A DNA stretch of 64,000 nucleotides, taken from a virus. Shown one piece after another: positions 14,728 through 35,239 of the stretch. The stretch is from IMG/VR virus record IMGVR_UViG_3300032053_000002, positions 108,752 through 172,751 of that record. One strand, written 5' to 3'. Numbering within the stretch: position 1 is the stretch's first letter; each line of letters begins with the position of its first letter. The notes beneath the pieces are model-generated. The model did not search any database. It worked only from the letters and a program-made list of their open reading frames with translations, and had not been told where the DNA came from. A program made the translations under genes and the position numbers.

Positions 14728-14737
14728 ATTTGGAATT

Positions 14738-14776: not shown

Positions 14777-14884
14777 CTTGGACAGATTTTCCGAAAAATT
14801 TTTAACTCCTTGACTTGAATTGTCGCCAGATGTGCCTCGTAAAATTCGTTTTTTATTAATAACTGCAAAATATGTTTATTGATA

Positions 14885-15075
14885 ACTGCGAAATACTTCA
14901 GGCGAAGTTATCTCTGCAAAATACTTCAGGCGTCCGTTCCGATGACAGAAGAATGATGTCAGCAAAATACTTCAAATGATGTCAGCAAAATACTTCAGGC
15001 GTCCGTTCCGATGACAGAAGAATGATGTCAGCAAAATACTTCAGGCGTCCGTTCCGATGACAGAAGAATGTGCGA
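14885..15075. repeat. iteron-like array: 17-mer GCAAAATACTTCAGGCG x5 within ~46-bp units x3
   Basis: Direct inspection; ORF-free region. Confidence 0.75.
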
Positions 15076-15380
15076 TACCCCTTGACCCGCTCGAGCGCAT
15101 TGCGCATCTCGGACTTCCTGACTTTCTACGCCTGAGACACACCCACCAAGACCACAAGACAGGCCATGTGAAACCCTTCACAAACTGCCATACCCGCACG
15201 ACTACCCCCGCACTAAAAGGCACTCGCCGCTCGTCTACTGGCACGTCCAGAAAACGTTCTCTGATGCGGGTTGACATCGTTATACCGCTCCAGCTCCGCT
15301 CCAGCTCCGCTCCAAATAGATATGGAGATTTTTTGCCCTGGAAAATAACTTACAGTTTGCAAAGAGTTATATAGTGGGAA

Positions 15381-15992
15381 TTATAAGTTAATTTTTTTTA
15401 TAGTGACATTGATTACAGGTGTTTGACGTAATAGCATATGATGATACTTATTCAGTGAGTCAATAGAGTTTTGTGTTAGTGTATCATCACTGATAAGTTT
15501 GTCGCGGATTTTTAGTATACTTTCCAATATATGAGGGCGAGTCCGTGATATGTCGACCGTAGCCGCTACGGTCGCGACGTTTTTATAACCGCTATCTATA
15601 TTCTTGTATAATTTTTCTATCTTAGCTAATAGATATATTTTCTTTATATAGCGAGTCGCCGCGGGGTGTTCCTTAATTATATGTTTAGTGAAATTGGGTC
15701 TATCGAAAAAGAATACAGTTTCCACATTTTCAATCAGCTTGAAATACTTGGGATCATCTTTAAGGATGCCGCCGTTCGCAATACGATATATTTCTTCATG
15801 AGTACCTGTTAACTTTATTCTACTCGCCCCTTCTTTAATCTCGGCGACGGTATTAAATACTTTCAGATTTTTCGGGAATGGAACTTCATATGATTCACCG
15901 ACGTTAAAATGCGGTTCCCCATCTGAAATCTCTATCATTCCCACCGTAGTAAAACGATAGCCGCTATCATTTATAAACTTATATGCCTTCAT
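15381..15992 (-). CDS. paralog-family protein, long form (N-terminal MKAYKF...IEISDGEPHF)
   Basis: 203 aa; N-terminus paralogous to 8055..8609. Confidence 0.55.
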   Translation of the reverse strand: MKAYKFINDSGYRFTTVGMIEISDGEPHFNVGESYEVPFPKNLKVFNTVAEIKEGASRIKLTGTHEEIYRIANGGILKDDPKYFKLIENVETVFFFDRPNFTKHIIKEHPAATRYIKKIYLLAKIEKLYKNIDSGYKNVATVAATVDISRTRPHILESILKIRDKLISDDTLTQNSIDSLNKYHHMLLRQTPVINVTIKKINL

Positions 15993-16416
15993 TGTTATAC
16001 TTTCTATTTATCTTGTTCAACTTTTTAACTTCGTCGCCAGTCAATCTAGACCGATTAAACTTGGTGCCTTGTATTGTACCAGGCGCCAATAAGTCACGCG
16101 ACGCAGGAGTTTTGCCAGCAGTAGAGAGAACTATAAATCTCGCTATAATTTCACCCACATAATCATGCGCCATCTTTGATCCAGGTCTGGTTGTATCATT
16201 CATACGTCCCAATGTAGCGTACAGTTTCAGTAATCTCCGATAGATATTATACCCTTTATACAAACTTATAAACAGCTGCTTAGCAGTAGTTAAATTCCGC
16301 GATGCATAGGTTTTTGGTATATCTTTTAATGTTAGTTCCGATTCCACCAATGAATATGTCGCCAGTACTTCACCGTTTTCCACGTACAGGTATTTAATCC
16401 ATTTTCCAGGTAACAT
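15979..16416 (-). CDS. paralog-family protein (C-terminal LNKINRKYNNEGI)
   Basis: 145 aa. Confidence 0.55.
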   Translation of the reverse strand: MLPGKWIKYLYVENGEVLATYSLVESELTLKDIPKTYASRNLTTAKQLFISLYKGYNIYRRLLKLYATLGRMNDTTRPGSKMAHDYVGEIIARFIVLSTAGKTPASRDLLAPGTIQGTKFNRSRLTGDEVKKLNKINRKYNNEGI

Positions 16417-16421
16417 ATTCC

Positions 16422-18674
16422 TTAATTCCTTTTAATCGTCGAGAACAAAGAATTCAACTCTTTAGCAAGCGGAACCAGTTGATCAACCCTGATGAAGCGA
16501 CTATCCTTACCGTACATTTCGCGGAAAGTTACAGCGGAACTAGACGTGGTATCTACGCGATCACTTACGAAAAAGGACATAACCCGAATACCGTTTGCTC
16601 TCATTTTATCTACGGCTTCTTTTGTCAGAGTTTCAATATCCTTAATCCCATTATAGCTGTTAGGTTCACCGTCGCTGATGTTGATGAAGTACGATACTTT
16701 TCCGACACTACTATTAAGTATTTCTTTCATCGTCGCCTCGAAACACAATCCTTCGGGAGTACCACCAGTGGAACACATCATAGAGAAGTATTTACGAAAC
16801 TTACCGAAACTGTCTTTGCGACTATCATACGCAAGCAGAACCGTCGGCGCTTGCATACCATTAGTAACGTAGTAATCCCACCGAAGAGAAATCATAACTT
16901 TTAAGTTATTCACCTGAGTAGCAGCGTAGGCTAAAGCCGACACCATAGTCATCGTCCTATTCCACTTATCACCCCCCATAGACGATGACGCGTCAATACT
17001 AATATGTAGCATCGCTTCACCGAAAGTGTCCTTAGTAACCTGTGAAAAGACAGATTCCAAATCATATCCCAGTCCGTGAAGTAACCGTTTTTCCAGATGG
17101 CCGGTTTGTTTACGAATAAGTTTAGTAACCTTTGTCTCGTTACGAATCTGTAAGCGATTCGCCAACATCTTGCCTAACCGAATTCCGAGATTGACATACG
17201 TTTCAGACGGCTTACGATTGGAGTTATGAAATAAACTATCGCGCATCAAATGCATCGACTCGTCGTTCAGTTCGCGAATGACAACTACTTGTACACCTTC
17301 TTTACTTTCACCATGACTGTCAGATTCAGTACCGGTAGCGCCATCACCAACTTTAGTTTTTTTCCCACCAACGTTCTCAACCGTCGTACCGGACGCATCC
17401 ATTGCGTTAATTATTTCGTGCTCGTCTTTAGTGATAGCACCTTTCTTTACTTTTCCATTTACCAGTTCTTTTATTTCTTCAATAGCCTTTTTCAACTGTT
17501 TTTTCTGTTCTTTTGTCAGTTCATCTCCAGATTGTGGCGTTCCGTCTCCGACATTAACCATATCACCGTCTTGCAACTTATCTATTGGGTTATCGTGTTT
17601 CGAATCACCGTCATCTTTTTTATCACCGTCTTTGCTGTCGCCAGAGTCTTTGTCTTTTTTATCACTACCGTCAGAGTCTTTATCTTTTTTATCACTGTCG
17701 CCAGAACCGCCACCACTATCACCAGATTCTTCTCCACCATCACCGCTATCGCCAGATTCTTTTTCATCACCACTATCTTTTGTCTGCGACTCATCACCGG
17801 TTTCCGTAGGTTTATTTAACGGATGGTCAACCGGAAGCGGGTCAATGTTTTCTAACACAACCGTAAAAATCTTTTCGGCGACTATACGAGAATCGGACGT
17901 ACTTTCCAGGCGGTCGATATTGTCAATATCAAATATGTTACTGATTTTATCTAAACCAGGAAGTGCATTCAGGTCAATGTTACTTTTATCAGACGCCAGA
18001 CCGTAGAAGCGAAAATGATAACTTTCAAGATTTCTCTCGCGATAGTAACTTGATTTCAATCCAAGAGCAACTATTTTCGCGTTCCAATATCTATTATACA
18101 ACGATGTATAATATGGTCTATAACCGATAACTTTGTCCATCATAATACGGTCAATGCGACGATCTTCAATAAAGTTCCAGTAGTCAAAGAACAACTTTTC
18201 CAACTCTTCTTTATTGGTTATGTTTTTTGTAGCGGCTAAAGCCGTGATTGATGGGGTTACATTTATAGTTCCAGTTTTAAGAAACTCACTGTACAATATG
18301 TGACTGGACTCGTGGAGTGCTAACCCGACAACCGTATCAAAATCTTTGTTAGTAACGTTAGCACTAATAAAGACATTTTTACTGTCGGTCATACTATGAT
18401 CTTGAACGTTAAACAATACTTTGATTTTTTTGTCGCGAGTCGCGATGTGGACAAACCTGGCGACCGCTCTGCGAATAGACGACATTTCGATAAGCGATTT
18501 CTTATCTTTTTCTTCTGGGATAGCACGTAGCCAGTAACGAGAATACAGATTGGCGGTAGAGTAATCTTCATCTTCCCGAAAACCAAATCGCGTCTTGAAG
18601 AAATCTTTCGCCATTTCCTTATCGTATGCTTCGTCGGCTTTATTTTTGCCACCGAATAAGTTTTTTATACTCAA
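16422..18674 (-). CDS. CobT-like von Willebrand factor A (vWA) domain protein with long acidic low-complexity linker; TTG start
   Basis: 750 aa; C-terminal vWA/MIDAS-type domain (HISIDASSSMGG...), central D/S/G/K/E-rich repeat (DSGDS..., KKDKDSDGSDKKDKDSGDSKDGDKKDDGDSKHD); AAGGAA RBS before TTG; adjacent to a MoxR/CobS-like ATPase as in many large phages. Confidence 0.7.
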   Translation of the reverse strand: MSIKNLFGGKNKADEAYDKEMAKDFFKTRFGFREDEDYSTANLYSRYWLRAIPEEKDKKSLIEMSSIRRAVARFVHIATRDKKIKVLFNVQDHSMTDSKNVFISANVTNKDFDTVVGLALHESSHILYSEFLKTGTINVTPSITALAATKNITNKEELEKLFFDYWNFIEDRRIDRIMMDKVIGYRPYYTSLYNRYWNAKIVALGLKSSYYRERNLESYHFRFYGLASDKSNIDLNALPGLDKISNIFDIDNIDRLESTSDSRIVAEKIFTVVLENIDPLPVDHPLNKPTETGDESQTKDSGDEKESGDSGDGGEESGDSGGGSGDSDKKDKDSDGSDKKDKDSGDSKDGDKKDDGDSKHDNPIDKLQDGDMVNVGDGTPQSGDELTKEQKKQLKKAIEEIKELVNGKVKKGAITKDEHEIINAMDASGTTVENVGGKKTKVGDGATGTESDSHGESKEGVQVVVIRELNDESMHLMRDSLFHNSNRKPSETYVNLGIRLGKMLANRLQIRNETKVTKLIRKQTGHLEKRLLHGLGYDLESVFSQVTKDTFGEAMLHISIDASSSMGGDKWNRTMTMVSALAYAATQVNNLKVMISLRWDYYVTNGMQAPTVLLAYDSRKDSFGKFRKYFSMMCSTGGTPEGLCFEATMKEILNSSVGKVSYFINISDGEPNSYNGIKDIETLTKEAVDKMRANGIRVMSFFVSDRVDTTSSSAVTFREMYGKDSRFIRVDQLVPLAKELNSLFSTIKRN

Positions 18675-18704
18675 TCTATCTTTCCTTCTTTAATTGTATA
18701 CCTA

Positions 18705-18776
18705 AATATACCACCCCCCGGCGTATCAGTCAACTGTTATTTTAACTATTTTTTTAACCATATGAATTATTTCACA
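18705..18776 (-). promoter_or_regulatory. sigma70-like promoter TTGACT-N17-TATATT with UP-like AT block and upstream near-palindrome TATGAATTATTTCACA
   Basis: Reverse complement TTGACT gatacgccggggggtgg TATATT. Confidence 0.6.
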
Positions 18777-18852
18777 TGACCGTTCCTGGAAAAAAAGAAA
18801 TACCCCCTGCACATAATGTATAGGGGGTATTTCGCCTTCTTAGGGAAGGATT

Positions 18853-20160
18853 TTACATTAAGTCATCTTGATGAAACAGGTCGCCAGATCCAGCCACGAC
18901 CGGTTCAACTTCTTCTTTTTCCTTTTTCTCTTTTTTCGGCTCTTTGACTACATCTTTTTCGAACAGCGGCTCGGCGTCGAGGTTACTATATTGCTGAATG
19001 AACTGCAACAGATGTGTTCTTTCGGAATCGGCACCACCTTCACCGGAAAACATATTCACCACACTGGCTTCCATCACTTCACTGAAAGTAAACCCATCGT
19101 TCAACATGCTAACCTGCGCGACAGTGGAGCGGATAGAAATCATGGTAGTCAGGGTTGGCGCTTCACTGGTAGCCTCTTTACGAGTATACCCGGCAACAGC
19201 AACAATACCCTTAATAAGTTTCTGGTTAATTTCAGGATATAAAAGTTTTAACAACTTGAATTCTTCGGCTTCAGTAGGAATATCCATTTCAATCATGACC
19301 GGAAAACGGTCTTTCGTAGCACGATCAATGATACGAGTAGCGGTGTATTCACCACCGACGTTAGCGGTCGTAAAGAACGTTACTCCAGGAGCGACATTGA
19401 TTACAGGTGTTTTCGGGTCTTCATCCAACCGCACATAACGCTGATCCGGATCGAGAATCGTCATAAGGATATTTTCAGCATCAGGATTGGCACGAGTTAT
19501 TTCGTCCAAGAGAATTACAGCACCCGGTGTCGTAATGGCTTTGATAAACTCAGACTTGACGAAGTAAGTACCGGTTTCCTTATTGAAGTGTGTGTTACCG
19601 ATTAAAGTAGCACGAGCGTCCTGTGTAGCCCCAAGATTAAACTTGAAGAACGGGCGACCCAGAACTTTACCGATAGTGCGACCGGTAAGTGTTTTACCGA
19701 ATCCACTATAACCCGTAAAGATGATATTCTGGCCACGAAGAGCAGAGTGCACCGCATACTTCCATTTCAGTTCAGCCAATATGAGGGTCTTCGGTTTCAG
19801 TGAGATTGCGTTCTTGATAGCAGTACGTACATCTTCATCAGATGGGGTTACGTATCCTGTATATTCAGATGGAGTAGTCGCCTCGACTGTGGGGTTGGCG
19901 ACAACCGAAGTAGGCATAAGTGTAGAACCGTTACTATATTCATAGTCAACGGGAACTTCATCGGCTTTCAAACGACGCCAGAAAACATTACCGGCCTTCG
20001 ATACCACTTTTCCTAAGTAGATACCGTGGTCAGCCGCATGGCGACGAGCGCCGTAAGGTATTGGTTCGCTATACATCTTCTCCGTCTTGATTTCAATCGG
20101 GTTCAGATGAGAACCATCGCGAACGACTTTAACGATTACTAAAAATTTTGGTGATTTCAT
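18853..20160 (-). CDS. CobS-like / MoxR-family AAA+ ATPase
   Basis: 435 aa; Walker A GYSGFGKT, Walker B ILLDEITRANPDAENILMTILD, sensor motifs; partner of the vWA protein. Confidence 0.75.
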   Translation of the reverse strand: MKSPKFLVIVKVVRDGSHLNPIEIKTEKMYSEPIPYGARRHAADHGIYLGKVVSKAGNVFWRRLKADEVPVDYEYSNGSTLMPTSVVANPTVEATTPSEYTGYVTPSDEDVRTAIKNAISLKPKTLILAELKWKYAVHSALRGQNIIFTGYSGFGKTLTGRTIGKVLGRPFFKFNLGATQDARATLIGNTHFNKETGTYFVKSEFIKAITTPGAVILLDEITRANPDAENILMTILDPDQRYVRLDEDPKTPVINVAPGVTFFTTANVGGEYTATRIIDRATKDRFPVMIEMDIPTEAEEFKLLKLLYPEINQKLIKGIVAVAGYTRKEATSEAPTLTTMISIRSTVAQVSMLNDGFTFSEVMEASVVNMFSGEGGADSERTHLLQFIQQYSNLDAEPLFEKDVVKEPKKEKKEKEEVEPVVAGSGDLFHQDDLM

Positions 20161-20193
20161 GTAACTTTATTCCTTCCCTAAATTGTATACTTA

Positions 20194-20265
20194 AATATAC
20201 CAAATCCCGGCTTACTAGTCAACTGCTATTTTAACTATTTTTTCAGCCTTGTGAATTATTTCACT
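20194..20265 (-). promoter_or_regulatory. sigma70-like promoter TTGACT-N17-TATATT plus upstream TGTGA-N6-TCAC half-palindrome
   Basis: Reverse complement TTGACT agtaagccgggatttgg TATATT ... GGAAGGA SD ... ATG. Confidence 0.6.
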
Positions 20266-20545
20266 TGACCTTTTTCTTAGCGAATTCTGAAAACGTATCA
20301 CTCTTTCGAGCGACAGTCGCTACTTTCATTAACCGCTTACCGAACACCCGATCACAATCTTTGTCAGCAAGAGTTTTCTCTATTCTTTGCTGAACTTTCG
20401 CCACAAGCGCCGGGTGGATGTTAAAAGACGTAACCTTATATCCCCATTCCCGAACTTCAAACTTGAATATGCCCACCTTTTTAGGCATTCGTTTCAGTAT
20501 CGTTAAAGTCAGACGATTATCCTGTTCCTTAAATATCGCTTTCAT
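20261..20545 (-). CDS. hypothetical basic protein, 94 aa
   Basis: ORF track. Confidence 0.45.
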   Translation of the reverse strand: MKAIFKEQDNRLTLTILKRMPKKVGIFKFEVREWGYKVTSFNIHPALVAKVQQRIEKTLADKDCDRVFGKRLMKVATVARKSDTFSEFAKKKVK

Positions 20546-20752
20546 TTATAGCGCTCCCATTCTTTTTAATTTGTTAATTGCGGTATGCAGTTCGTGGCAA
20601 AGATATTTATGCGCAACAAACTTTTCAACATCCTCTTCTTTTCGAGCACGGTGAACTATCGTATAGCGTTTGGATTCCTTAACCCACCCAAATACCAGCC
20701 ATTCGCGATGCCCCCTCAATGTCTTAAATAATCTTGGTCTTCCCGATTTCAT
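20546..20752 (-). CDS. hypothetical protein, 68 aa
   Basis: ORF track. Confidence 0.4.
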   Translation of the reverse strand: MKSGRPRLFKTLRGHREWLVFGWVKESKRYTIVHRARKEEDVEKFVAHKYLCHELHTAINKLKRMGAL

Positions 20753-21201
20753 TATACTTGTTCCTTGTTATATTTCATGTATATTTTATTTAATTTTGTC
20801 GCCACCTTTTCACCTATCGGAATCTTCTCATCGGATGAAATGGCTCTTAATACGGTTAGTATCAACATGCACGACTCTACCTCGTCACGATCTTCCCCCA
20901 CAGCAATTAACTGTAATTTTTTCAGCTTCTCATATAGTATCGTAAAATCTTTTAATTCCACGACTTTCGCTTTGTAAATGTATAAAATTTCGCCTCTTTT
21001 GTATTTATCTACTTTCGGCGTATTATTAGGATCAGAATGTCGTATATCAAATACCATACTAAAAGTACCGCTGGCATTCCCATACAAATCGACTGTGCCC
21101 GACCAGGGTTCGGCAGGTTCTATCAAAGAACCACCTAACCCCTGCTTCTCGTACCCGTCTTTTTTATCGAATTCTATTATCTTGTATACCATATCAATCA
21201 T
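20752..21201 (-). CDS. paralog-family-related protein (C-terminal LNKIYMKYNKEQV)
   Basis: 149 aa; has the C-terminal motif but lacks the FYIW core. Confidence 0.5.
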   Translation of the reverse strand: MIDMVYKIIEFDKKDGYEKQGLGGSLIEPAEPWSGTVDLYGNASGTFSMVFDIRHSDPNNTPKVDKYKRGEILYIYKAKVVELKDFTILYEKLKKLQLIAVGEDRDEVESCMLILTVLRAISSDEKIPIGEKVATKLNKIYMKYNKEQV

Positions 21202-21451
21202 TTATCAGTAAAAGTTTCATCCCATCGATGGAAACATATCTCCAGCCATGCGTTTCTCCTTCACCATCTTTGTCGGCTCCAGAAAATATAAAGGTTCGTT
21301 TTTCTCCAGTACTCTCGTTCAACACAGTAACACAATTGTATAAGTGATGGTTTTTCACACGACCACTCAAATCACTCCATTCCCATGCCAGTGTCCGGGT
21401 TTTCTTATCCCACCCATTTTTCATCAGTTGGTTATTTACAGTGATTATCAT
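21194..21451 (-). CDS. hypothetical protein, 85 aa
   Basis: ORF track. Confidence 0.45.
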   Translation of the reverse strand: MIITVNNQLMKNGWDKKTRTLAWEWSDLSGRVKNHHLYNCVTVLNESTGEKRTFIFSGADKDGEGETHGWRYVSIDGMKLLLIND

Positions 21452-21452
21452 A

Positions 21453-21623
21453 TTATTTGATCCTCTTTGATGTTAAAAAACTGTAGATGACGTACATAAC
21501 TGCGGCGAATGCGAACAGCATCGGTTCCGTTATCAGTAAGTAAGTCAGTATCGCGACAACAAATATCGTTTCAAATGTCGCCTTCAATATCATTTTTTTA
21601 TTCACTTTACTTTTCATATTCAT
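21453..21623 (-). CDS. small membrane protein, 56 aa (below track cutoff)
   Basis: ATG 21623, TAA 21453-21455; MNMKSKVNKKMILKATFETIFVVAILTYLLITEPMLFAFAAVMYVIYSFLTSKRIK; consensus promoter directly upstream. Confidence 0.35.
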   Translation of the reverse strand: MNMKSKVNKKMILKATFETIFVVAILTYLLITEPMLFAFAAVMYVIYSFLTSKRIK

Positions 21624-21652
21624 ATATTACATCTTTCCGAATTATCAGTCAA
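21624..21652 (-). promoter_or_regulatory. sigma70-like promoter TTGACT-N17-TAATAT
   Basis: Reverse complement TTGACT gataattcggaaagatg TAATAT. Confidence 0.5.
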
Positions 21653-21718
21653 ATTATATTTTAACTATTTTTATTCTTTGTGAAAAATTTCACTTTATTT
21701 GTGTCCTATTTTTTAATT

Positions 21719-22087
21719 TTAATGCCAGTTAGTCTGATATACGGAACTTCCACTCCATACGTACGCGCGTTCAAAAGAAGAGATCGATATAAACTCGCGA
21801 CCATCTTTGGTAAGTTTTACCTTTTTCATTTTATTTTCCATACGAGCATAGTCATTACCGGCATTTAGGTCAGGTATAACGTAGTCGCTTAAACCGGTTT
21901 CCCTCTTCACGATCTTCTGCCCCACTCCGACAACCTTCACAGACTTAGCGGTCACGGCAACCACTTTATAAAAGTTTACGTTGGTCTGTTCATAACCCCA
22001 GCAACTTACGAGAATGTCATTTACTTTCATTATTATTTCCCTTTTAGTTTTAGTGTCAACATAAATGGATACAACCGCGTCAACCAC
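21719..22087 (-). CDS. hypothetical protein, 122 aa
   Basis: ORF track. Confidence 0.5.
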   Translation of the reverse strand: MVDAVVSIYVDTKTKREIIMKVNDILVSCWGYEQTNVNFYKVVAVTAKSVKVVGVGQKIVKRETGLSDYVIPDLNAGNDYARMENKMKKVKLTKDGREFISISSFERAYVWSGSSVYQTNWH

Positions 22088-22230
22088 TTTTCTACTTCTT
22101 CCAAAAGTGTTTCGTCAGAAACCGTTGATTTTGTCCGTGGTCTTAGCCAAGCTGCGAGTTCTTTTTTTATTTCGTCGAATGGACGAGTAGTGTCAATCGT
22201 AAACGGTGCGTCATTTTTTGATTTACTCAT
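22033..22230 (-). CDS. hypothetical protein, 65 aa
   Basis: ORF track. Confidence 0.35.
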   Translation of the reverse strand: MSKSKNDAPFTIDTTRPFDEIKKELAAWLRPRTKSTVSDETLLEEVEKWLTRLYPFMLTLKLKGK

Positions 22231-22325
22231 TTTATTTATGTCCTATTTTTTTACTTACCAGTGAATGTATCGTATAGCACATCGCCAGATTCGCGGCGAC
22301 AACTACTAAAACAACGACTACCATT

Positions 22326-22691
22326 TTAATTAGTCCTCGACTTGGATGCACGTAACCAGTCAGTATTGACTACTACCGGAACGACATCAGTGATCTTACC
22401 ATTAGCAACTTTCGCTAACTGACCAATATATTTTTTGATTCTACGTTTGATGATGGCGAACTGCTTGTCAGTGATAAACCCAAACCGTGAATAGAAGTTA
22501 CCGATGCTGGTAAATATCTCACCATCGACACCAGTGAACCCCACTCCATTATCTTCGGTCGTACCAACGAATGATTTTTCGCCACGAGTCTGAAGAGAAT
22601 AGATTCTCAGGAAACCCTTGAATATGGCGTAGTCATTGTCTATCAGCATATTCGCTATATCTTCTTTATTATACTTTGGTTTTGTTTTCAT
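22326..22691 (-). CDS. hypothetical protein, 121 aa
   Basis: ORF track; consensus promoter at 22700-22728. Confidence 0.5.
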   Translation of the reverse strand: MKTKPKYNKEDIANMLIDNDYAIFKGFLRIYSLQTRGEKSFVGTTEDNGVGFTGVDGEIFTSIGNFYSRFGFITDKQFAIIKRRIKKYIGQLAKVANGKITDVVPVVVNTDWLRASKSRTN

Positions 22692-22699
22692 AATAGTAT

Positions 22700-22728
22700 A
22701 ATATACAATTCCTCAGTATAACAGTCAA
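22700..22728 (-). promoter_or_regulatory. sigma70-like promoter TTGACT-N17-TATATT
   Basis: Reverse complement TTGACT gttatactgaggaattg TATATT. Confidence 0.55.
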
Positions 22729-22754
22729 ATTATTTTTTAACTATTCTTACAGAG

Positions 22755-22883
22755 TGTGAAATTATTCACAAGATCGTCGCCGTGACTGGCGACTTGCCAT
22801 CCCGAGCCTTGTGAAGTTTTTCACAAAGTAGCGGCTCAGCTTGACGCGAGCAAGCGGCCGGCCGCGTTGTGAAATTTTTCACA
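22755..22883. promoter_or_regulatory. cluster of three perfect CRP-like palindromes TGTGA-N6-TCACA (22755-22770, 22810-22825, 22868-22883) with GC-rich hairpins between them
   Basis: TGTGAAATTATTCACA, TGTGAAGTTTTTCACA, TGTGAAATTTTTCACA; also GTCGCC-gtgactg-GGCGAC hairpin and 12-bp palindrome GCGGCCGGCCGC. Confidence 0.6.
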
Positions 22884-22899
22884 AGCGACTGTAATAAAA

Positions 22900-23255
22900 A
22901 AGTCCTACGTCCGTGACTTCCATGTAGCCTCGGGTTGCGATCCCGTTCGTCATGGCCTCGTCACGTAATTCGTAGGACTTTTCTCACCTAAGTCGTTTCC
23001 GACTGTCCACATTACCTGCTAGCCGGCGGGATAGTTGGATGGGCGACGACTCCCATCATCTCATACCGACACATACGGCCGGTGCGCCTTTCTTCCTTAG
23101 ACCACAACTATTTTCGGTGATTCTCGCGATTTCTGCCGAATTCGCGATACTTTTATTCATTTCTCAAAGAACAAAAGAGTGCCCCGTAGGACACCCCCGA
23201 ACGTTCTCCCGGGGAGTGTCCTCCACGCGGGTATACGTTCCATATTTGATATACT
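22900..23255 (-). ncRNA. candidate ~350-nt structured non-coding RNA (GC-rich, ORF-free, own promoter and terminator-like 3' stem)
   Basis: Consensus promoter at 23256-23284 fires into this segment; no credible ORF on either strand; 3' end forms long stem GTCCTACG...CGTAGGAC followed by a U-run (plus-strand aaaaaaGTCCTACG at ~22905); GC content far above surrounding DNA. Confidence 0.4.
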
Positions 23256-23284
23256 AATATACAACTTCTTGGCGAGAAAGTCAA
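23256..23284 (-). promoter_or_regulatory. sigma70-like promoter TTGACT-N17-TATATT
   Basis: Reverse complement TTGACT ttctcgccaagaagttg TATATT. Confidence 0.55.
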
Positions 23285-23292
23285 CTGTTATT

Positions 23293-23472
23293 TTAACTAA
23301 ATGGGGAATCTCGATCTTCTAACTCGTCGAGCGTACGCTTGAAATCTTCGAGCGTCTCAATATATTTCAACTTCAGCTGCTTGTTTTCTTTAAGCAATCG
23401 CTCCACTTCCTTCTTCAACTCGGAGATGGTTTTCAGCATCTCGATCTTATTCTTTAGTTCAGCGGTAGTCAT
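23293..23472 (-). CDS. small coiled-coil protein, 59 aa (below track cutoff)
   Basis: ATG 23472, TAA 23293-23295; MTTAELKNKIEMLKTISELKKEVERLLKENKQLKLKYIETLEDFKRTLDELEDRDSPFS. Confidence 0.35.
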   Translation of the reverse strand: MTTAELKNKIEMLKTISELKKEVERLLKENKQLKLKYIETLEDFKRTLDELEDRDSPFS

Positions 23473-23498
23473 ATCTTATCCTTATTTTTAAGTCTTAG

Positions 23499-23723
23499 TT
23501 ATAGAACAAAAAAAACCGCTCGGTTCTTTCCAACCTTTTCATACGTCAACACCCTTGAAGGGCGGAAATCGCTCAAATAACCGGCGAGTTCATCCAAAGA
23601 ATCGAAATACTTCGGCGAAAAAAACTTATCAGGATCGGGGTCTTTTTCCAATACCCATCGCTTGTTGAGCATTTTGCGCCGATTTTTGACCTTGTTGGCG
23701 AAATAATGGTCGGTGGTTTTCAT
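23499..23723 (-). CDS. hypothetical protein, 74 aa
   Basis: ORF track. Confidence 0.45.
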   Translation of the reverse strand: MKTTDHYFANKVKNRRKMLNKRWVLEKDPDPDKFFSPKYFDSLDELAGYLSDFRPSRVLTYEKVGKNRAVFFVL

Positions 23724-23753
23724 ATATTGTTTCCTTTTTTTATATTTTAATCT

Positions 23754-23829
23754 TGGGGTGCACGGTGAGATTCGAACTCACGCTCCGCGGGTCACAGCCG
23801 CGTAATGCTACCGCTACATCACGCGCACC
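23754..23829 (-). tRNA. tRNA-His (anticodon GTG) with G-1:C73 and encoded CCA
   Basis: Reverse complement G-GTGCGCG..anticodon stem CGCGG/CCGCG loop CTGTGAC..T-arm GTGAG TTCGAAT CTCAC..CGTGCAC-C-CCA. Confidence 0.85.
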
Positions 23830-23836
23830 ATATATT

Positions 23837-24058
23837 TTATCCTGAGAAAGCTTTTTCCAATGTTATTCGTTGCAACACTTCCCAGTATAACTTCGGCATT
23901 GCCTTCTTATCGATCATTTCCGATATATTCCGAGCCGATCCGAATTCGTCTTCAAAAGCCTGTTCGGACTTCTCAATGTACTTTTTTACTTCTTTTAAAA
24001 ACGTCATGTTACTCTTCACGGCGAAACTCTCCTTAATTTTTATACTATAATATAACAC
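23837..24058 (-). CDS. hypothetical protein, 73 aa
   Basis: ORF track; consensus-type promoter at ~24049-24078 (spacer 18). Confidence 0.45.
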   Translation of the reverse strand: MLYYSIKIKESFAVKSNMTFLKEVKKYIEKSEQAFEDEFGSARNISEMIDKKAMPKLYWEVLQRITLEKAFSG

Positions 24059-24086
24059 CTATCAGCTTACCAGTCAACTGCTATTT

Positions 24087-24524
24087 TTACTTATTTTTTG
24101 CGTATGCATTTAGTGCCCATCTCCACATTTCGTTTAAAAACCCAACGTCTTTTATACTGAGTTTGCGGGTTTTTAAAAATTCTTTATAAAATAACGTTAT
24201 TTCCGTTGCTGATTCGGTACACCCGACATTCTTTAAACTACTAATTAAAAGCTCAATTTTTTCGCTGATTCTTTTTATTTTCTCTTCGGGCGACTCTACT
24301 CTTTCTAGTACGAAAAATGGAAAATTATATCCGCTATCAAGATGAATTCCTTTACTTCCGCTACAAATAAACGTTATGTCGCCCTCTTCACCGACATATT
24401 TGTCCATCATAGAAGTCCAAGTATTATCCCATCCATTTTCATGATTATGAGCAATCATTACAACTTTTACTCTGTCGCCAACTTTGAATCCGGCAGCTTT
24501 TTGTTTGATTTCGTATTCACTCAT
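24087..24524 (-). CDS. hypothetical protein, 145 aa; paralog of 24521..24955
   Basis: Shares KVGDRVKVV...W.NTW N-terminal block and C-terminal FLNEMW motif with neighbour. Confidence 0.55.
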   Translation of the reverse strand: MSEYEIKQKAAGFKVGDRVKVVMIAHNHENGWDNTWTSMMDKYVGEEGDITFICSGSKGIHLDSGYNFPFFVLERVESPEEKIKRISEKIELLISSLKNVGCTESATEITLFYKEFLKTRKLSIKDVGFLNEMWRWALNAYAKNK

Positions 24525-24955
24525 TTTTTAATATACGCTTTCCATATTGCATTTAAATACTCAACATCGTCTATACTGAATTTATGACTTTTTTTAAATC
24601 GCGCGTACATTTTATACACTTCGTTAGCAACACGTTTGCATCCGTTATTCTGTAAACCACTAATTAAACGCTCAAACTTTTCACTTACTCTCTTTATTTT
24701 CTCATCGGACGACTTCACTTTTTTCAGTACGGAAGGTGGGAATCTGTATGTCGGGCCTTTACGGGGAATACTTTCTAAACGAATTCCTGCGGTCTTATGA
24801 ATATCGGATATAACCATTATTTTGCCAACACTTTTATTCATCTCAAGTACCCATGTATTCCGCCACTCACTCGTGTAGCTCTCAGCAATACCGGTAACTT
24901 TTACTTTGTCGCCGATTTTGAACTGGGTGGGGGTTCTCTTTTTTCCTGGCGACAT
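24521..24955 (-). CDS. hypothetical protein, 144 aa; paralog of 24087..24524
   Basis: KIGDKVKVTGIAESYTSEWRNTW; C-terminal YLNAIWKAYIKK. Confidence 0.55.
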   Translation of the reverse strand: MSPGKKRTPTQFKIGDKVKVTGIAESYTSEWRNTWVLEMNKSVGKIMVISDIHKTAGIRLESIPRKGPTYRFPPSVLKKVKSSDEKIKRVSEKFERLISGLQNNGCKRVANEVYKMYARFKKSHKFSIDDVEYLNAIWKAYIKK

Positions 24956-24957
24956 CT

Positions 24958-25512
24958 CTACACACTCTCCAAATATGCGTGATTTAACCCGCCTTTTTTA
25001 TTACTGTATATAGACACTTCTGCATCAAGTTCACTGGGAGTATTACTTACCCAACCGAAGAACTTCTTTCTACAATCACTGTGACGACAGAAGTCAACTT
25101 GCGGACCGTCAACCGGTTTACCACAGTAGTGGCAATACCTTTCTTCACGAAACATTTCTGTTTTCGGAAGTAAACGTTTCCATAGGGAAATATCCTTCCG
25201 CTTATACGTTTTCTTCACCACTGCGGGACTTCCAAATATAACTTCACCATGCAACTTAGCGAGATAAGGTCTTATCCATTTTACCGAGTATTCCACCACG
25301 GCGACTCGCTTATAAGTGTATTTATAATCGAACAACTTATCCATAGCGTCTTGCTGTTTTCTAATCAACTCCAGCATACCTGAATCATCTTTCACAGTAA
25401 CGGTAATCCCCAGCTCACTATTCTTGAAAACTAGGAAGGTACGCCCGACTTTATACGCAAAAGATACTTTCGCGTCTCCGTATGTCTCGTAAAACTTTTT
25501 TTCGTTCATCAT
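24958..25512 (-). CDS. hypothetical protein with C-terminal Cys-rich zinc-binding segment, 184 aa
   Basis: CHYCGKPVDGPQVDFCRHSDCRKKFFGW. Confidence 0.5.
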   Translation of the reverse strand: MMNEKKFYETYGDAKVSFAYKVGRTFLVFKNSELGITVTVKDDSGMLELIRKQQDAMDKLFDYKYTYKRVAVVEYSVKWIRPYLAKLHGEVIFGSPAVVKKTYKRKDISLWKRLLPKTEMFREERYCHYCGKPVDGPQVDFCRHSDCRKKFFGWVSNTPSELDAEVSIYSNKKGGLNHAYLESV

Positions 25513-25534
25513 TATTCTTTTCTCCTATACCTAA

Positions 25535-25563
25535 AATATACCACTTCTCAGCGTATCAGTCAA
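25535..25563 (-). promoter_or_regulatory. sigma70-like promoter TTGACT-N17-TATATT
   Basis: AGTCAA at 25558-25563 and AATATA at 25535-25540 on plus strand. Confidence 0.55.
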
Positions 25564-25664
25564 GAACTATTTTCGCTATAGCGGCATTCCGGACGGCAAT
25601 GCGGTCGTAACTAGAGCCCTTCGTGAACTTTTTCACATACGGTCTGTACGTTTTCTGTAAGTGG

Positions 25665-25745
25665 TTTTTCAATCCGCTCGCTCCTCTCGGTTGCAATCCG
25701 CTCGCTCCTCTCGGTTGTCAATTCGCTCGCTCCTCTCGGTTGTAG
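25665..25745. repeat. ~23-bp direct repeat x3 (ccgctcgctcctctcggttgcaat)
   Basis: Direct inspection, GC-rich ORF-free island. Confidence 0.8.
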
Positions 25746-25854
25746 GGGGCAACTCGGTAGACGTGTCAGGCGAGTTCAGAACCGTGCATGCAAATAGGCA
25801 GCCTGAAGTGTGTTCGTCGTGTGGGGGGGTTCTTGGCGGGAGTTTGTGGTTTGT

Positions 25855-25912
25855 GCGGGAGTTCTTGCGAGAGTTTGCGCGGGAGTTCTTGCGGGAGTTT
25901 GCGCGAGGAATC
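25855..25912. repeat. ~22-bp direct repeat x2.5 (gcgggagttcttgcgagagttt)
   Basis: Direct inspection. Confidence 0.75.
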
Positions 25913-26084
25913 GTGGAGAAGTGGGGGCATGGGGGTGGCGGTGCTTCCGACGAGTAGCAATTGCGCATCGGCAATACCTGCGACCCACTATTATAATATT
26001 ATCCGAATATCAAAAAGGCGTGGATTATTTATTTATAATAGGGAAGTGATTATCAATTCCAGCAAGTTGTATCAAATAGGCGAG

Positions 26085-26165
26085 TGATATGCAGCGATAT
26101 GCAGTGATATGCAGCGATATGCAGTGATATGCAGTGATATGCAGTGATATGCAGCGATATGCGCT
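26085..26165. repeat. 10-bp tandem repeat gatatgcagY x8
   Basis: Direct inspection. Confidence 0.85.
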
Positions 26166-26178
26166 GTAATATATATGG

Positions 26179-26937
26179 CTAATAACGTTGTATAAAAGCG
26201 AGTTCCGATTTAAGATTAGAAAGAAAGAAATGTTCATCAGTAGTTCTATCGAATACTATTGTAGCATCGTGTATAGTAGGTTGATCATAAATTAGTTTCG
26301 GATCTATATTATTTTTAGAATAGTCGCCGATTAGTTGTTTGGCCAGAACATTTAATGTTTGTAAATCATCTTTTTTTAAAGATGGTCGCAGTAACAAATG
26401 GTCTACAAATATAAATCGTAATCTTGCCTGAAAGCGTTCTTCTGATATTAAATACTCAAATATTCTCTCATATTTCGAAGTATCATTTTCCCATAATGCA
26501 TAGGATTCGCGAAGAATATGTCTCAATTTGTTTAATATCGTATAGTATTTATTTATGTAATATTTTTCGCCGAGGTGATTCGTATGATATTTACTTCTCC
26601 AGAATTCAAGCCGGGTTGAAACACTAACATCTTTACTAAGAAGGCTTTGCAGATGATTAATAGAAAAAAATGTTTCACTTTGATTGAGTAACTTGCGAAC
26701 TTCATTAAAATCATAGCTTTCGCCTTCTTGCGAAGTTTGGGCAGATTTATTTAGACACTTAGATACGATTTGGTGCTCTATTATTTTATAGTGCGAAAAA
26801 TCTTTATCATACATTAAAACACCGCCGATTGGCAGCGCTTCTGCATAAAACACATAAGAGCGAATATGTATTTTGTTGTCTTTATAAAAAGATTTTAAGT
26901 TGATAGCGTGAACAGGTACTATATTTGTATTAGACAT
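26179..26937 (-). CDS. hypothetical protein, 252 aa; paralog of 29441..30142
   Basis: N-terminal VPVHAINLKSFYKDNKIHIRSYVFY matches LPVHVINLRENMSRARIYVKSIVIY of 29441..30142. Confidence 0.55.
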   Translation of the reverse strand: MSNTNIVPVHAINLKSFYKDNKIHIRSYVFYAEALPIGGVLMYDKDFSHYKIIEHQIVSKCLNKSAQTSQEGESYDFNEVRKLLNQSETFFSINHLQSLLSKDVSVSTRLEFWRSKYHTNHLGEKYYINKYYTILNKLRHILRESYALWENDTSKYERIFEYLISEERFQARLRFIFVDHLLLRPSLKKDDLQTLNVLAKQLIGDYSKNNIDPKLIYDQPTIHDATIVFDRTTDEHFFLSNLKSELAFIQRY

Positions 26938-26943
26938 AACTAT

Positions 26944-27192
26944 TTATTTCGCCAACCAGGCCCAATATTTTGGAGTTCCGTAAGCACCTATTGACAAACC
27001 GTTGCACCATATGGTGCAACGGTTACCGTTGTACCATTGTAAAGGATTTAGTTCGTCTTTCCATGGCGAAAATGATACGGCTCTATTGTGGTTGAACCAT
27101 ACCAGAATAGCACTATTATAATCAACCGTATTAACGTCTGGCGGGTCGCCTTCAATCCACTCCAAATCAAGCGGTGATTTTGTTATTTTCAT
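26944..27192 (-). CDS. hypothetical Trp-rich protein, 82 aa
   Basis: ORF track. Confidence 0.45.
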   Translation of the reverse strand: MKITKSPLDLEWIEGDPPDVNTVDYNSAILVWFNHNRAVSFSPWKDELNPLQWYNGNRCTIWCNGLSIGAYGTPKYWAWLAK

Positions 27193-27201
27193 AAGTCGTT
27201 C

Positions 27202-27558
27202 CTATTTTTCTTTTATTGTAAACGTGCTGTCAGTAGGTTGAGTAATGATGTAGTGATTGTCCCCTATTACTACTGGGATTTCGCGTGGTTTGGATCTAAA
27301 TTGATTACTTTTCAATATACGAGAAATTTCCATTAACTTGCGCCTTGGTTCATCATACTTTCGGAATATTATAAACTTTTCTTTTTGAAAGTTGATTTCG
27401 TCGATAACCGCAAACAACGAATCACCAATCTCTTTTGAAAAACTATTTTTTTCGGAGAGTATCTTAAAAATAACCGTCAACTCTTCGGTTGGTTCTATAT
27501 CACAACCGAGCGACATTAAAAATATAGAACATAATAATAATAACATTAAATTTTTCAT
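27202..27558 (-). CDS. putative lipoprotein, 118 aa
   Basis: MKNLMLLLLCSIFLMSLGC lipobox-like signal. Confidence 0.5.
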   Translation of the reverse strand: MKNLMLLLLCSIFLMSLGCDIEPTEELTVIFKILSEKNSFSKEIGDSLFAVIDEINFQKEKFIIFRKYDEPRRKLMEISRILKSNQFRSKPREIPVVIGDNHYIITQPTDSTFTIKEK

Positions 27559-27980
27559 TTTTTAACTCCAATTATTTTTGCTATTTTATTTAATCTTAAC
27601 ACATCATATTCGGTAAGGCGAGTACCCGAAAGATGAGTCCAATTTTCATTGGCTCCGTAACTCTCAACAAACTTTTCTACTAAACGATTAACATAAATTC
27701 GATCTCCCCACGCCTTTTGTTTGGAGTATGATAAATATATCCCATCGTTTATAAACCTATTAAGTTTATTCGATAATATTTTTAATCGTCGCCAGATAGT
27801 TAAACCCTTGTATAAACCGTCTATTTTCTTCTTTGCCTCGTCAACCGTCATTATATCATAATAGTTGGCCGGAACTTCAAGTATAACCATAATCTGAGAA
27901 TCGGGTTTCCATTCGGCTATTGCGGGTACGCGACGATCTTCATAACAAAAATTTCCAACCCACGTCAAAACATCATTCAT
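27555..27980 (-). CDS. paralog-family protein (TIWRRLK core, C-terminal LNKIAKIIG)
   Basis: 141 aa. Confidence 0.55.
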   Translation of the reverse strand: MNDVLTWVGNFCYEDRRVPAIAEWKPDSQIMVILEVPANYYDIMTVDEAKKKIDGLYKGLTIWRRLKILSNKLNRFINDGIYLSYSKQKAWGDRIYVNRLVEKFVESYGANENWTHLSGTRLTEYDVLRLNKIAKIIGVKK

Positions 27981-28468
27981 CTATTCTTATTTCCTTCAAC
28001 GCACCTATTTATTTTATTTAGCATTTTTACTTCTTCGTCAGTTAGTCTCGACTCAAATCGCGGTATAACTTTTATGCTTCCAGGAACTTCGGCGGACTCT
28101 AGATAAGTAACAAATTTGCCAATTAGCCCATTAACATACCTTTCGTATTCTTCCAATACCAGAGACATTTTGGCGTAAGAAGATGGATAGTCTTTGTATT
28201 TAACCACCAGAGTTTTTTCCAGTTCAATAATTTTAAGTAGTAATTCTTTTAATCTTCGCCAGATGGTTGTGCCCTTATACAGGTCGTTCATCGCAACTTT
28301 TGCTACATCGAGGCTTAGGCAATCATGGTATACGTGCGGAACTTCGTGTAATATTAAAGATTTTTCTTCTGCGTTATAAGTCGCTATCTTATTAGAAGAC
28401 CCGGTTTTCACGTCGCCTTCGTAACATTCATCATCAACCCATTGTAAAGTATTTTTTATTGCGTTCAT
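27977..28468 (-). CDS. paralog-family protein (TIWRRLK core, C-terminal LNKINRCVEG)
   Basis: 163 aa. Confidence 0.55.
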   Translation of the reverse strand: MNAIKNTLQWVDDECYEGDVKTGSSNKIATYNAEEKSLILHEVPHVYHDCLSLDVAKVAMNDLYKGTTIWRRLKELLLKIIELEKTLVVKYKDYPSSYAKMSLVLEEYERYVNGLIGKFVTYLESAEVPGSIKVIPRFESRLTDEEVKMLNKINRCVEGNKNR

Positions 28469-28632
28469 AACTTACTCTCGATACGTTTTTCCATTACTTT
28501 GCATTTTCTGCATAAGCATCCAATCACTAAATTAAGATATTTTTTTCGCCAACGAGATTCTCTCGTTTTTAAAAACTCGTTTTCTTCTGTTAATTCAAGT
28601 ATTCTCGCCTTCAATTGGGCGACCTCTTTCAT
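28465..28632 (-). CDS. small coiled-coil/Cys-containing protein, 55 aa (below track cutoff)
   Basis: ATG 28632; TGA 28465-28467 overlaps next ATG as ATGA; MKEVAQLKARILELTEENEFLKTRESRWRKKYLNLVIGCLCRKCKVMEKRIESKL. Confidence 0.3.
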   Translation of the reverse strand: MKEVAQLKARILELTEENEFLKTRESRWRKKYLNLVIGCLCRKCKVMEKRIESKL

Positions 28633-28640
28633 ATGTTTGC

Positions 28641-29429
28641 TCATAATCTTTCAATCTTTTTACCGTATTTGGACAAGTAAATACCCACACATCCGATACA
28701 GCTACTTTCCGTGTTGTTAGGTATCGTGATGGCGATTCGCATACACTCTTCACTACAAAAACCGGCAGTTATAGTTTTGCCTTTTTCTAAATAACAACTA
28801 CCTTTAATATGTTCGTAATGCAGGTGTCCGGTAAATGTTCGTGCCTTTTTACCGCAAATTATACACCTATCAACGTGCCAATGGATATGGTTTTTTGCGA
28901 TATTGTTCATGGCATCTACCATACCAGGAGTAAACCGGTCATTATTTTTAACCTGCCGCATCACTGCTAAAACCCTTGATCTCGCACTTTCATCATCAAC
29001 ATTTTTCAGAATACTTTTTAGTTTTTTTAAGAGTCTCTCTTTTTTATGCGGTATAACATAATCATCATATAATTCGGCTAATATTTTATATTTGCCATTA
29101 AAAACGGGGCATAATCTACCCGCGAAGTTATTATACGCAAAAATATAGTCATCTCCGTTACGATGTATGAAATACGAACTCGGGGTTAAGAAAAATAATC
29201 CAAACGAAGCCACTCCGCGTCCGGTCTTGGAAAAAACTACATTCAATAATTTGGATTTTTTTACTATTTCGCGAACATTTTTATATCTTCTAAAGTTTTC
29301 CGGAAGTGGTACGAGCGACATTATTTCCGGGATGCCGGTAATTTCTATCATATTTTTATATAATAAATGTCCACCGTCCCCATCATAAATTTCTATGTCA
29401 GGAGTTTCATATTTATTTGCAACTAACAT
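28641..29429 (-). CDS. hypothetical protein with C-terminal Cys/His-rich zinc-binding region, 262 aa
   Basis: HIHWHVDRCIICGKK...HLHYEH...CSEEC...CIGC. Confidence 0.5.
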   Translation of the reverse strand: MLVANKYETPDIEIYDGDGGHLLYKNMIEITGIPEIMSLVPLPENFRRYKNVREIVKKSKLLNVVFSKTGRGVASFGLFFLTPSSYFIHRNGDDYIFAYNNFAGRLCPVFNGKYKILAELYDDYVIPHKKERLLKKLKSILKNVDDESARSRVLAVMRQVKNNDRFTPGMVDAMNNIAKNHIHWHVDRCIICGKKARTFTGHLHYEHIKGSCYLEKGKTITAGFCSEECMRIAITIPNNTESSCIGCVGIYLSKYGKKIERL

Positions 29430-35210: not shown

Positions 35211-35239
35211 AATATACAACTATTTAAAGTAACAGTCAA
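35211..35239 (-). promoter_or_regulatory. sigma70-like promoter TTGACT-N17-TATATT
   Basis: AGTCAA 35234-35239, AATATA 35211-35216 on plus strand. Confidence 0.55.

Follow-up and report, generated by a model that had tools for sequence, protein, structure and literature searches.

The 64,000-nucleotide stretch analyzed here (the window), positions 108,752 to 172,751 of the virus record IMGVR_UViG_3300032053_000002, contains a 666-bp non-coding spacer between two genes of the minus strand. The spacer begins after the stop codon of a gene for a 252-amino-acid (aa) protein (26179-26937) and ends at the start of a gene for a 184-aa protein (24958-25512). Read in the direction of transcription, it consists of an array of 10-mers, a 107-bp linker, a C-rich tract, an array of 24-25 bp units, a palindrome block, a promoter, the ribosome-binding site AGGAG, and the ATG of the 184-aa gene. 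The C-rich tract contains a further array and a homopolymer run. All three arrays are variable-number tandem repeats (VNTRs). The best explanation is that the spacer separates two co-directional early transcription units. The arrays were called with Tandem Repeats Finder (TRF), and the features of the spacer are as follows.

25513-26178, minus strand: the whole non-coding spacer, 666 bp, defined from lists of open reading frames (ORFs), strain indels, and null results for Pfam, Rfam, and tRNA
25535-25563, minus strand: predicted sigma-70-type promoter TTGACT-N17-(TG)-TATATT for the 184-aa gene and the genes following it, from a promoter scan
25623-25636, no strand: 14-bp palindrome GTGAACTTTTTCAC (GTGAA-N4-TTCAC), one of seven exact sites in the window
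25669-25743, no strand: array of a 24-25 bp unit, 3.0 copies, TRF 94% matches and score 136, variable in copy number
25733-25995, minus (transcribed) strand: C-rich, G-poor tract, from C minus G and a RhoTermPredict-style first step
25823-25829, no strand: homopolymer run of strain-variable length (plus strand G7, minus strand C7)
25849-25905, no strand: array of a 24-bp unit in the C-rich tract, 2.4 copies, TRF score 100
25976-26082, no strand: non-repetitive linker, 107 bp, with the average GC content of the genome (33.6%; window 34.9%)
26083-26162, no strand: array of the 10-bp unit GATATGCAGY, 8.0 copies, TRF score 139

Tandem repeats and strain variation in the spacer

Strong tandem repeats are concentrated in the spacer. 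The window has five distinct arrays with a TRF score of at least 90, three of them in this spacer, while 30 dinucleotide-preserving shuffles of the window gave none. A preliminary description of this DNA had reported the three arrays. They are real and their coordinates were right to within a few bases, but the first two periods are 24-25 bp and 24 or 12 bp, not about 23 and 22 bp as given there. The array in the C-rich tract, which reads CTCCCGC...CAAGAA on the minus strand, is alternatively called by TRF with a period of 12 and 3.8 copies (25854-25899). Similarly the 10-mer array, which begins 17 bp past the stop codon of the 252-aa gene, is alternatively called with a period of 20 and 4.0 copies (96% matches, score 153). 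Relative to the predicted transcription start, the arrays are found at -141 to -215, -321 to -377, and -555 to -634. The 24-25 bp unit does not occur elsewhere in the window, and the 10-mer has a single occurrence outside its array, at 14299. A search for the source of the 24-bp unit, using a 19-mer scan of genome collections, gave nine single matches in unrelated high-GC metagenome-assembled genomes, which is roughly the chance level, and these were rejected as a source. Another strong non-coding array, in the same 15-kb stretch, is located in the gap upstream of a 170-aa gene (11185-11697); it has 4.3 copies of a 27-bp unit at 11781-11896 (TRF score 179).

The arrays differ in copy number between closely related strains. 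Strain contigs were found through exact-protein look-ups in about ten other metagenome assemblies, which contain the same phage or relatives that are 97-98% identical. Protein-pattern and DNA-pattern scans found no relatives in IMG/VR or among JGI metagenome contigs. Alignment and motif counts of the strain contigs gave at least five spacer haplotypes.

Window and L005: eight 10-mers, C7, three 24-mers
L015 and L021: four 10-mers, C7, three 24-mers
L016 (L017 in part): four 10-mers, C6, one 24-mer, and 1 and 8 additional nt in the 12-mer zone
L001: 10-mer array not covered, C6, one 24-mer, without the 1-nt and 8-nt indels of the 12-mer zone
Allele B (L014 plus L020): four 10-mers, C8 (in L014), one diverged 24-mer copy (in L020)

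Two other contigs, L002 and L019, cover only the promoter-proximal end of allele B. The 10-mer array has eight copies in the window and L005 and four in L014, L015, L016, L017, L018, and L021. Strain indels in the spacer measure 40, 49, 1, and 8 nt, and the 1-nt and 8-nt indels of L016 and L017 shift the register of the 12-mer repeat. Allele B has diverged sequence in place of about 50 bp around the 24-mer and of about 45 bp beside the promoter. The strains that vary in copy number have flanks that are 97-100% identical, showing that the arrays are true variable-number repeats. Copy-number variation among isolates had been proposed as a check in the preliminary description, and it is present in the 10-mers (eight or four), the 24-mers (three or one), and the homopolymer (six, seven, or eight). 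Contig L015 (ERZ27247989 k141_1601305) is a perfect 3,416-bp palindrome, its own reverse complement, with the turn upstream of the 252-aa gene. This palindrome is an assembly artifact, and strain evidence was taken from one arm only.

The arrays are also a practical problem, as they are places where short-k assemblies of this phage break. Logan contigs (k=31) end within the 10-mer array, which is 80 bp long, and within a perfect 46-bp repeat near 15.0 kb. L005, an ENA contig built with k=141, is identical to the window over 15021-28674 and continuous through the spacer, and at the 15-kb array it has one additional 46-bp copy. The spacer is also covered completely by the short contigs L015 and L021 and almost completely by L016. 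Because the breaks fall inside arrays longer than k and L005 is continuous, the contig ends are assembly effects and not element borders or DNA termini. The 11,072-bp Logan contig L003 spans exactly 15041-26112, which suggested that the block at 15-26 kb might be a separate mobile or circular element. This was rejected because both of its ends are within arrays longer than k=31, and L005 runs through both. A physical DNA end at the common start base of L002 and L019 was rejected as well; L020 continues the same sequence as allele B.

The spacer encodes neither a protein nor a recognizable structured RNA. Eleven ORFs overlap it, all of them of low complexity and overlapping each other on both strands. 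They are spurious because the strain indels, none of which is divisible by three, would frameshift all of them. No Pfam match was found for the seven that were tested, and a pseudogene remnant was rejected on the lack of Pfam matches in these shadow ORFs. The statement in the preliminary description that the region yields only shadow ORFs is therefore correct. Within the GC-rich core (25581-25975) there is no Rfam match at E<=10, and the only match is a chance T-box outside the core. Predicted folding of the core is no better than that of shuffled sequences on the two strands (z = +0.97 and +1.06). A tRNA search of the spacer found no tRNA, and no intrinsic terminator is predicted in it. The G-rich plus strand of the spacer was considered as a G-quadruplex, and it has no (G3+N1-12)x4 motif. 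Megablast of 24500-27500 against phage and plasmid records found no similar DNA, and blastn of the spacer against phage records gave no match.

The composition of the spacer is uneven. The core is 56.7% GC in a window of 34.9%, so the embedding of the arrays in GC-rich DNA, as first described, holds for the core; the 10-mer array, at 43.8% GC, is outside the core, beyond the 107 bp of the linker. The adjoining DNA had been called AT-rich, but the linker at 25976-26082 does not differ from the genome average. In the five strain contigs that cover it, the linker is free of indels and varies at one base (T or C). It contains no DnaA box at up to one mismatch.

Candidate control elements and proposed transcriptional insulation

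The predicted promoter of the 184-aa gene belongs to a family that is frequent in the first half of the window. The pattern TTGACT-N17-TATATT has 14 matches in the window at up to one mismatch, of which 12 are exact, compared to 1.16 expected, and 13 of the 14 are on the minus strand. The exact copies, all on the minus strand, are at 368-396, 2169-2197, 6585-6613, 9644-9672, 13798-13826, 18705-18733, 20194-20222, 22700-22728, 23256-23284, 24049-24077, 25535-25563, and 35211-35239. The family is found in 0-35 kb and is absent from the sugar-gene region at 36-64 kb, as expected for a family of early promoters. Many of its members share the upstream sequence ATAGTTAAAATAnCAGTTGACT, with conservation extending over 46 nt (repeat family D2). 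The copy at 25535-25563 is kept in all of the strain contigs, including allele B. A different promoter of the family is preceded by a canonical terminator, a hairpin followed by T7. In the leader of the 184-aa gene (25513-25534) the window has 11 nt more than L001, L015, L016, and L021, and these nucleotides supply the AGGAG ribosome-binding site. The ATG of those four contigs is only about 5 nt past the -10 box, so that their mRNA is expected to be leaderless or almost so.

Upstream of the promoter is a 14-bp palindrome, which reads GTGAAAAAGTTCAC on the transcribed strand (25636-25623) and is centered about 101 bp upstream of the predicted transcription start. Exact copies are found at 15168, 20251, 21680, 22756, 22811, 22869, and 25623 (seven, compared to 0.06 expected). 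All seven are within 15.1-25.7 kb, inside a GC-richer block of the window, and three of them are centered 37-38 bp upstream of the center of a -35 box. Within the spacer, alleles A and B agree at 49 of the 53 positions of a block holding the palindrome, and have diverged on either side of it. The palindrome is a candidate operator or activator site, perhaps for a regulator specific to the GC-richer block. None of 10 small proteins of the 15-26 kb block has a Pfam DNA-binding match. Judging from the two alleles, the palindrome block is the only part of the interval treated in the preliminary description (25580-26170) that bears a footprint of constraint. In the spacer as a whole, two parts carry a functional signature, namely the family promoter and the conserved palindrome.

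The tract between the linker and the first array is unusual in strand composition. On the sense strand G is normally more frequent than C, with a mean C minus G of -0.055 in 80-nt windows. The stretch 25776-25975 is the only one in the 64 kb where sense-strand C minus G reaches at least 0.25 (80 nt), and its maximum of 0.36 is about 5.7 standard deviations (SD) above the window mean. The first step of RhoTermPredict looks for 78-nt windows in which C/G exceeds 1 and a C residue recurs every 11-13 nt (PMC6407284). A step of this kind gave a 263-nt run from 25995 to 25733 with C/G up to 4.22, the sole run on the sense strand with C/G of at least 3. This composition suggests that the tract is probably a rut-like zone of Rho loading and termination. 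As in rut sites (PMC6407284), the spacer RNA would be untranslated and unstructured, with far more C than G and with C every 11-13 nt over at least 78 nt. It differs from them in having no convincing pause hairpin downstream. Also, the 12-nt periodicity of the spacer stems from a recent tandem duplication, and its register depends on the strain.

These elements can be combined into a single account of the spacer, for which we estimate about an even chance. The spacer would be an inter-operon region with a family promoter and operator, a probable Rho-loading and termination tract, and VNTRs generated by slippage. Transcription in the direction of the genes would turn the GC-rich core into an untranslated and unstructured RNA, rich in C and poor in G, onto which host Rho could load. 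Rho would then halt read-through from the upstream operon ahead of the downstream promoter and operator, and we propose that the downstream block would therefore be under its own control. In this arrangement 15-26 kb would be a separately regulated block of early genes with the spacer as its upstream boundary. Replication slippage or unequal recombination would create the arrays and alter them. Non-coding DNA would tolerate such changes, and the arrays can be explained without invoking a sequence-specific role.

Several observations weigh against this account. Within 150 nt downstream of the tract there is no 40-nt window below -9 kcal/mol, a threshold that would detect strong pause hairpins only. 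Most of the other family promoters directly follow the preceding gene without a terminator, so insulation is not generally needed in this region. For these reasons Rho termination remains a reading of the composition. Conservation of the non-repeat DNA says little about constraint because the strains are 97-100% identical, the exception being the contrast between alleles A and B. Finally, periods of 10, 20, or 24 bp suit DNA-binding proteins, and the arrays may have a binding role.

Alternative explanations

The core and its arrays may have no function. According to this explanation, which is rather unlikely, everything except the promoter and palindrome is a neutral remnant of the acquisition of the block at 14-26 kb, shaped by slippage, and the C-rich bias is a historical accident. 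The block at 14000-26000 is 40.9% GC, compared to 32-35% on both sides, and it has two further GC-rich non-coding stretches. Copy numbers and registers change freely between strains, and allele B substitutes about 100 bp near the 24-mer array, as might be expected of DNA without a function. However, a sense-strand bias of C over G of about 5.7 SD that is unique in 64 kb is difficult to ascribe to accident. The core also has no protein remnant or similarity to any phage record, and spacers of similar size are rare in this tightly packed genome.

The spacer shares with the iteron origins of lambda and of plasmids such as R6K, pSC101, and P1 a set of three to eight direct repeats near 20 bp in length. 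The preliminary description had suggested a replication origin, pointing to multiple iteron classes beside AT-rich DNA. Repeats of 24 bp and 20 bp are present, and the arrangement of at least three direct repeats of about 17-22 bp in helical phase is found (20 bp with four copies, and 24-25 bp with three). A phage initiator could bind the 10/20-bp or 24-bp repeats, whose periods are near one or two helical turns, and a strong early-type promoter in the same spacer could assist. Nevertheless an origin, whether of the iteron type or like oriE of T4, is improbable here, as the other expected features are lacking. Cumulative GC skew falls monotonically through the site over the 64 kb, and the flanking genes all have the same orientation, so that there is neither a skew inflection nor a change of gene direction. 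There is no unusually AT-rich unwinding element, the flank having average composition. The DnaA box TTATCCACA has 27 matches in the window at up to one mismatch compared to 22.4 expected, and none in the spacer. The two flanking proteins are ORFans with no similarity in Pfam or PHROG to initiators, helicases, primases, terminases, or partition proteins. The repeat units do not recur elsewhere in the window, except for the one 10-mer at 14299. Moreover the number of repeats is halved or cut threefold between near-identical strains, and the promoter is directed away from the arrays. Thus the spacer differs from the lambda and plasmid origins in having no adjacent initiator gene, unwinding element, or DnaA boxes.

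The spacer was also compared with the origins of phage T4. T4 origins tend to be found at switches of transcription strand and composition, and oriE, which depends on an early promoter, has 12-nt repeats at even spacing (PMC3016281). Like oriE, the spacer belongs to an early region of a large phage and combines a cluster of regularly spaced short direct repeats with a nearby early-type promoter. It differs in that there is no switch of strand or composition, no replication genes are nearby, and copy number is not conserved. The iterons of oriE have themselves not been tied to origin activity (PMC3016281).

At the opposite end of the 14-26 kb block there is a second repeat-rich, GC-rich, gene-free region (14728-15380). 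Its repeats at 14852-15070 are two copies of a 23-bp unit and 2.1 copies of a perfect 46-bp unit, and the additional 46-bp copy of L005 shows that this array is variable. It also has a C-rich tract on the plus strand (15116-15250), which holds one palindrome, and an 11-bp array with 2.7 copies (15285-15314). Similarity was looked for among the three GC-rich non-coding stretches of the block, and the 14-bp palindrome is all that they have in common; this region and the spacer likewise share no other sequence. The two could be paired boundaries, acting as inward-facing transcription insulators, with protein-binding iterons (like those of T4 oriE, or centromere-like) whose number is tuned in each strain. 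The basis for this idea is that each is repeat-bearing and skewed, with a C-rich strand when read towards the block, and that the block alone holds the operator family. We regard it as an unlikely explanation.

Another explanation is that the arrays bind a protein for a different purpose, either as a centromere-like partition site or as a titration or architectural site for a phage regulator. This is quite doubtful. The plasmid sites parC and tubC are arrays of 10-20-bp direct repeats, and the spacer has an array of short direct repeats too. A period of 20 bp with four copies, or 10 bp with eight, puts all units on one face of the helix. The minus strand of the 10-mer contains ATCAC, which resembles the palindrome half-site TTCAC, but the agreement is only four of five bases and occurs in half of the units. 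Plasmid centromeres are next to a partition operon for an NTPase and an adaptor, and none was detected beside the spacer; there is no ParM-, ParR-, TubZ-, or ParA-like protein among the eight neighbors compared with Pfam or the ten compared with PHROG. In addition, the units recur nowhere else in the window apart from the single 10-mer, and their copy number is not conserved.

The remaining alternatives are much weaker. The 10-mer array had been proposed as a contingency locus, in which changes of repeat number switch a gene by phase variation. The variability itself is confirmed, as all three arrays and the homopolymer run differ among strains and the 10-mers number eight or four. However, none of the arrays falls inside a genuine ORF or separates a -35 from a -10 box, and the 10-mer array is about 555-634 bp upstream of the next start. 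Only two 10-mer alleles (four and eight copies) were found in about ten assemblies, each tied to one strain background, which indicates occasional change and not high-frequency switching. Such a locus is therefore highly improbable. There is hardly any likelihood that the spacer is a pac/cos packaging site or genome terminus, as had also been suggested. Its repeats are in a non-coding region and several short contigs end in or near it, but the Logan breaks (k=31) fall inside the 80-bp array and the 46-bp perfect repeat, the common start of L002 and L019 continues as allele B in L020, and L005, L015, and L021, and nearly L016, pass through the spacer. Moreover there is no terminase-like PHROG match among about 40 window proteins, of which only ten adjoin the spacer. 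A non-coding RNA gene is just as remote: the raised GC of 56.7% recalls the GC-rich islands of AT-rich genomes, which are often RNA genes, and the neighboring GC-rich stretch at 22885-23250 does resemble one, but the core folds no better than shuffles on either strand, has no Rfam match beyond the chance T-box outside it, lacks a promoter or terminator of its own, and tolerates indels of 1-49 nt.

Each of the classes iteron origin, pac/cos site, contingency locus, and plasmid centromere lacks at least one tested defining feature in this spacer, and the origin and packaging roles suggested in the preliminary description are not supported. The closest description is an ordinary cluster of non-coding VNTRs. 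Like the non-coding VNTRs of bacteria and phages, the arrays are near-perfect head-to-tail intergenic repeats of 10-25 bp that vary between strains and break short-k assemblies. The spacer is different in that three unrelated arrays and a variable homopolymer are packed into 666 bp, and in that two of the arrays are in DNA whose GC content exceeds that of the genome by about 22 percentage points.

The surrounding block and the phage

The GC-richer block may be a module that was acquired separately or is separately regulated. Within it are genes for a MoxR/CobS-like AAA_5 ATPase (18853-20160), for a 750-aa protein that other huge phages share, and for tRNA-His (23754-23828), together with an RNA candidate and all of the palindromes. 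The RNA candidate occupies a GC-rich gap (22885-23250, minus strand) and is a putative non-coding RNA gene, about 350 nt long, with its own promoter TTGACT-N17-TATATT at 23256-23284. It ends in a long hairpin followed by TTTTTT (near 22895-22960) and folds far better than shuffled sequences (-134 kcal/mol, z = -4.4). Rfam gives a single signal, skipping-rope RNA (RF02924), matched at full length at 23031-23105 but below the gathering threshold (21.6 bits against 36.7, E = 0.021). A local gene duplication is seen in the adjacent genes for 145-aa and 144-aa proteins (24087-24955), which are 77% identical over 111 nt (repeat family D8).

The source of the DNA is most likely a very large uncultured bacteriophage of at least 293 kb. 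A 100% identical copy of the 252-aa protein is encoded on a 292,723-bp contig. The genes of the 64 kb are nearly all on the minus strand, short, and tightly packed, and most have no family match. The 750-aa protein has just two matches among phage records, an uncultured phage of 484 kb and Microcystis phage Mel-JY01 (190 kb). The window also encodes a protein with a PhageMetallopep domain (2214-2684), an HNH endonuclease, and five tRNAs. The assignment to a huge phage is an inference, as the window has no structural genes. The copies of TTGACT-N17-TATATT, AGGAG ribosome-binding sites, terminators made of a hairpin and a T-run, and a ClpS gene are signs of a bacterial host, and the host is considered bacterial for these reasons. 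The 252-aa protein is an ORFan with no Pfam or PHROG match, it matches itself alone in two very large protein searches, one of them of 1.84 billion representatives, and its AlphaFold model is unusable (predicted local distance difference test score, pLDDT, 33.9). Similarly the 184-aa protein is an ORFan with no useful Pfam or PHROG match.

Other parts of the window have gene groups of their own. Four tRNA-Ser genes are found in a row at 985-2107, with the anticodons GGA, CGA, TGA, and GCT; they are about 300 bp apart with a small ORF between them. A hybrid sensor histidine kinase of 500 aa (PAS-HisKA-HATPase_c-receiver) is encoded at 2742-4244, and a stand-alone receiver-domain protein is found on contig L007 (7097-7456), about 7 kb outside the left end of the window. 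Two-component genes are unusual in phages. Four consecutive genes for proteins of about 170 aa (9721-11697) appear to be a run of paralogs. About 27 kb of sugar and nucleotide-sugar genes on one strand (36154-63803) form a cluster of the glycan- or DNA-modification type that is large for a phage. This cluster includes genes for a Nol-like carbamoyltransferase, an epimerase/dehydratase, an aminotransferase, a B12-binding radical SAM enzyme, and an NAD-dependent epimerase, as well as methyltransferase and glycosyltransferase domains.

The repeats of this phage resemble those of Borg elements. Borgs are archaeal and linear, with long terminal inverted repeats and a Methanoperedens host, and they have one tandem direct repeat region per 12-31 kb (PMC9605863). 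Both are giant elements of about 33-35% GC whose genes are mostly hypothetical and lie on one strand. The repeats of both are specific to their locus, intergenic, and locally raised in GC, and they fragment assemblies; the phage has five strong arrays in 64 kb. Unlike those of Borgs (PMC9605863), the phage arrays cluster in 11-26 kb, with none in a further 10.7 kb, and none is inside a gene. This is a bacteriophage and not an archaeal Borg because it has bacterial-type promoters, Shine-Dalgarno sites, intrinsic terminators, phage-like genes, and a ClpS gene.

Overall the finding is ordinary and of modest importance. Several independent assemblies document that tandem repeats vary in a hot spot within a non-coding spacer of a huge phage, with a repeat density and locally raised GC like those of Borg repeats. 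The evidence requires neither a Rho-dependent insulator nor the binding of an initiator or partition protein. If the arrays bind an initiator or partition protein, they would be a rare candidate for a cis-acting site in an uncultured jumbo phage. If the spacer and the region at 14.7-15.4 kb are paired boundaries, they would be a cis-acting element that organizes a phage genome of about 293 kb and not a passive VNTR. If the C-rich tract is a Rho-dependent insulator, a large phage would be separating its early transcription units through a host factor.

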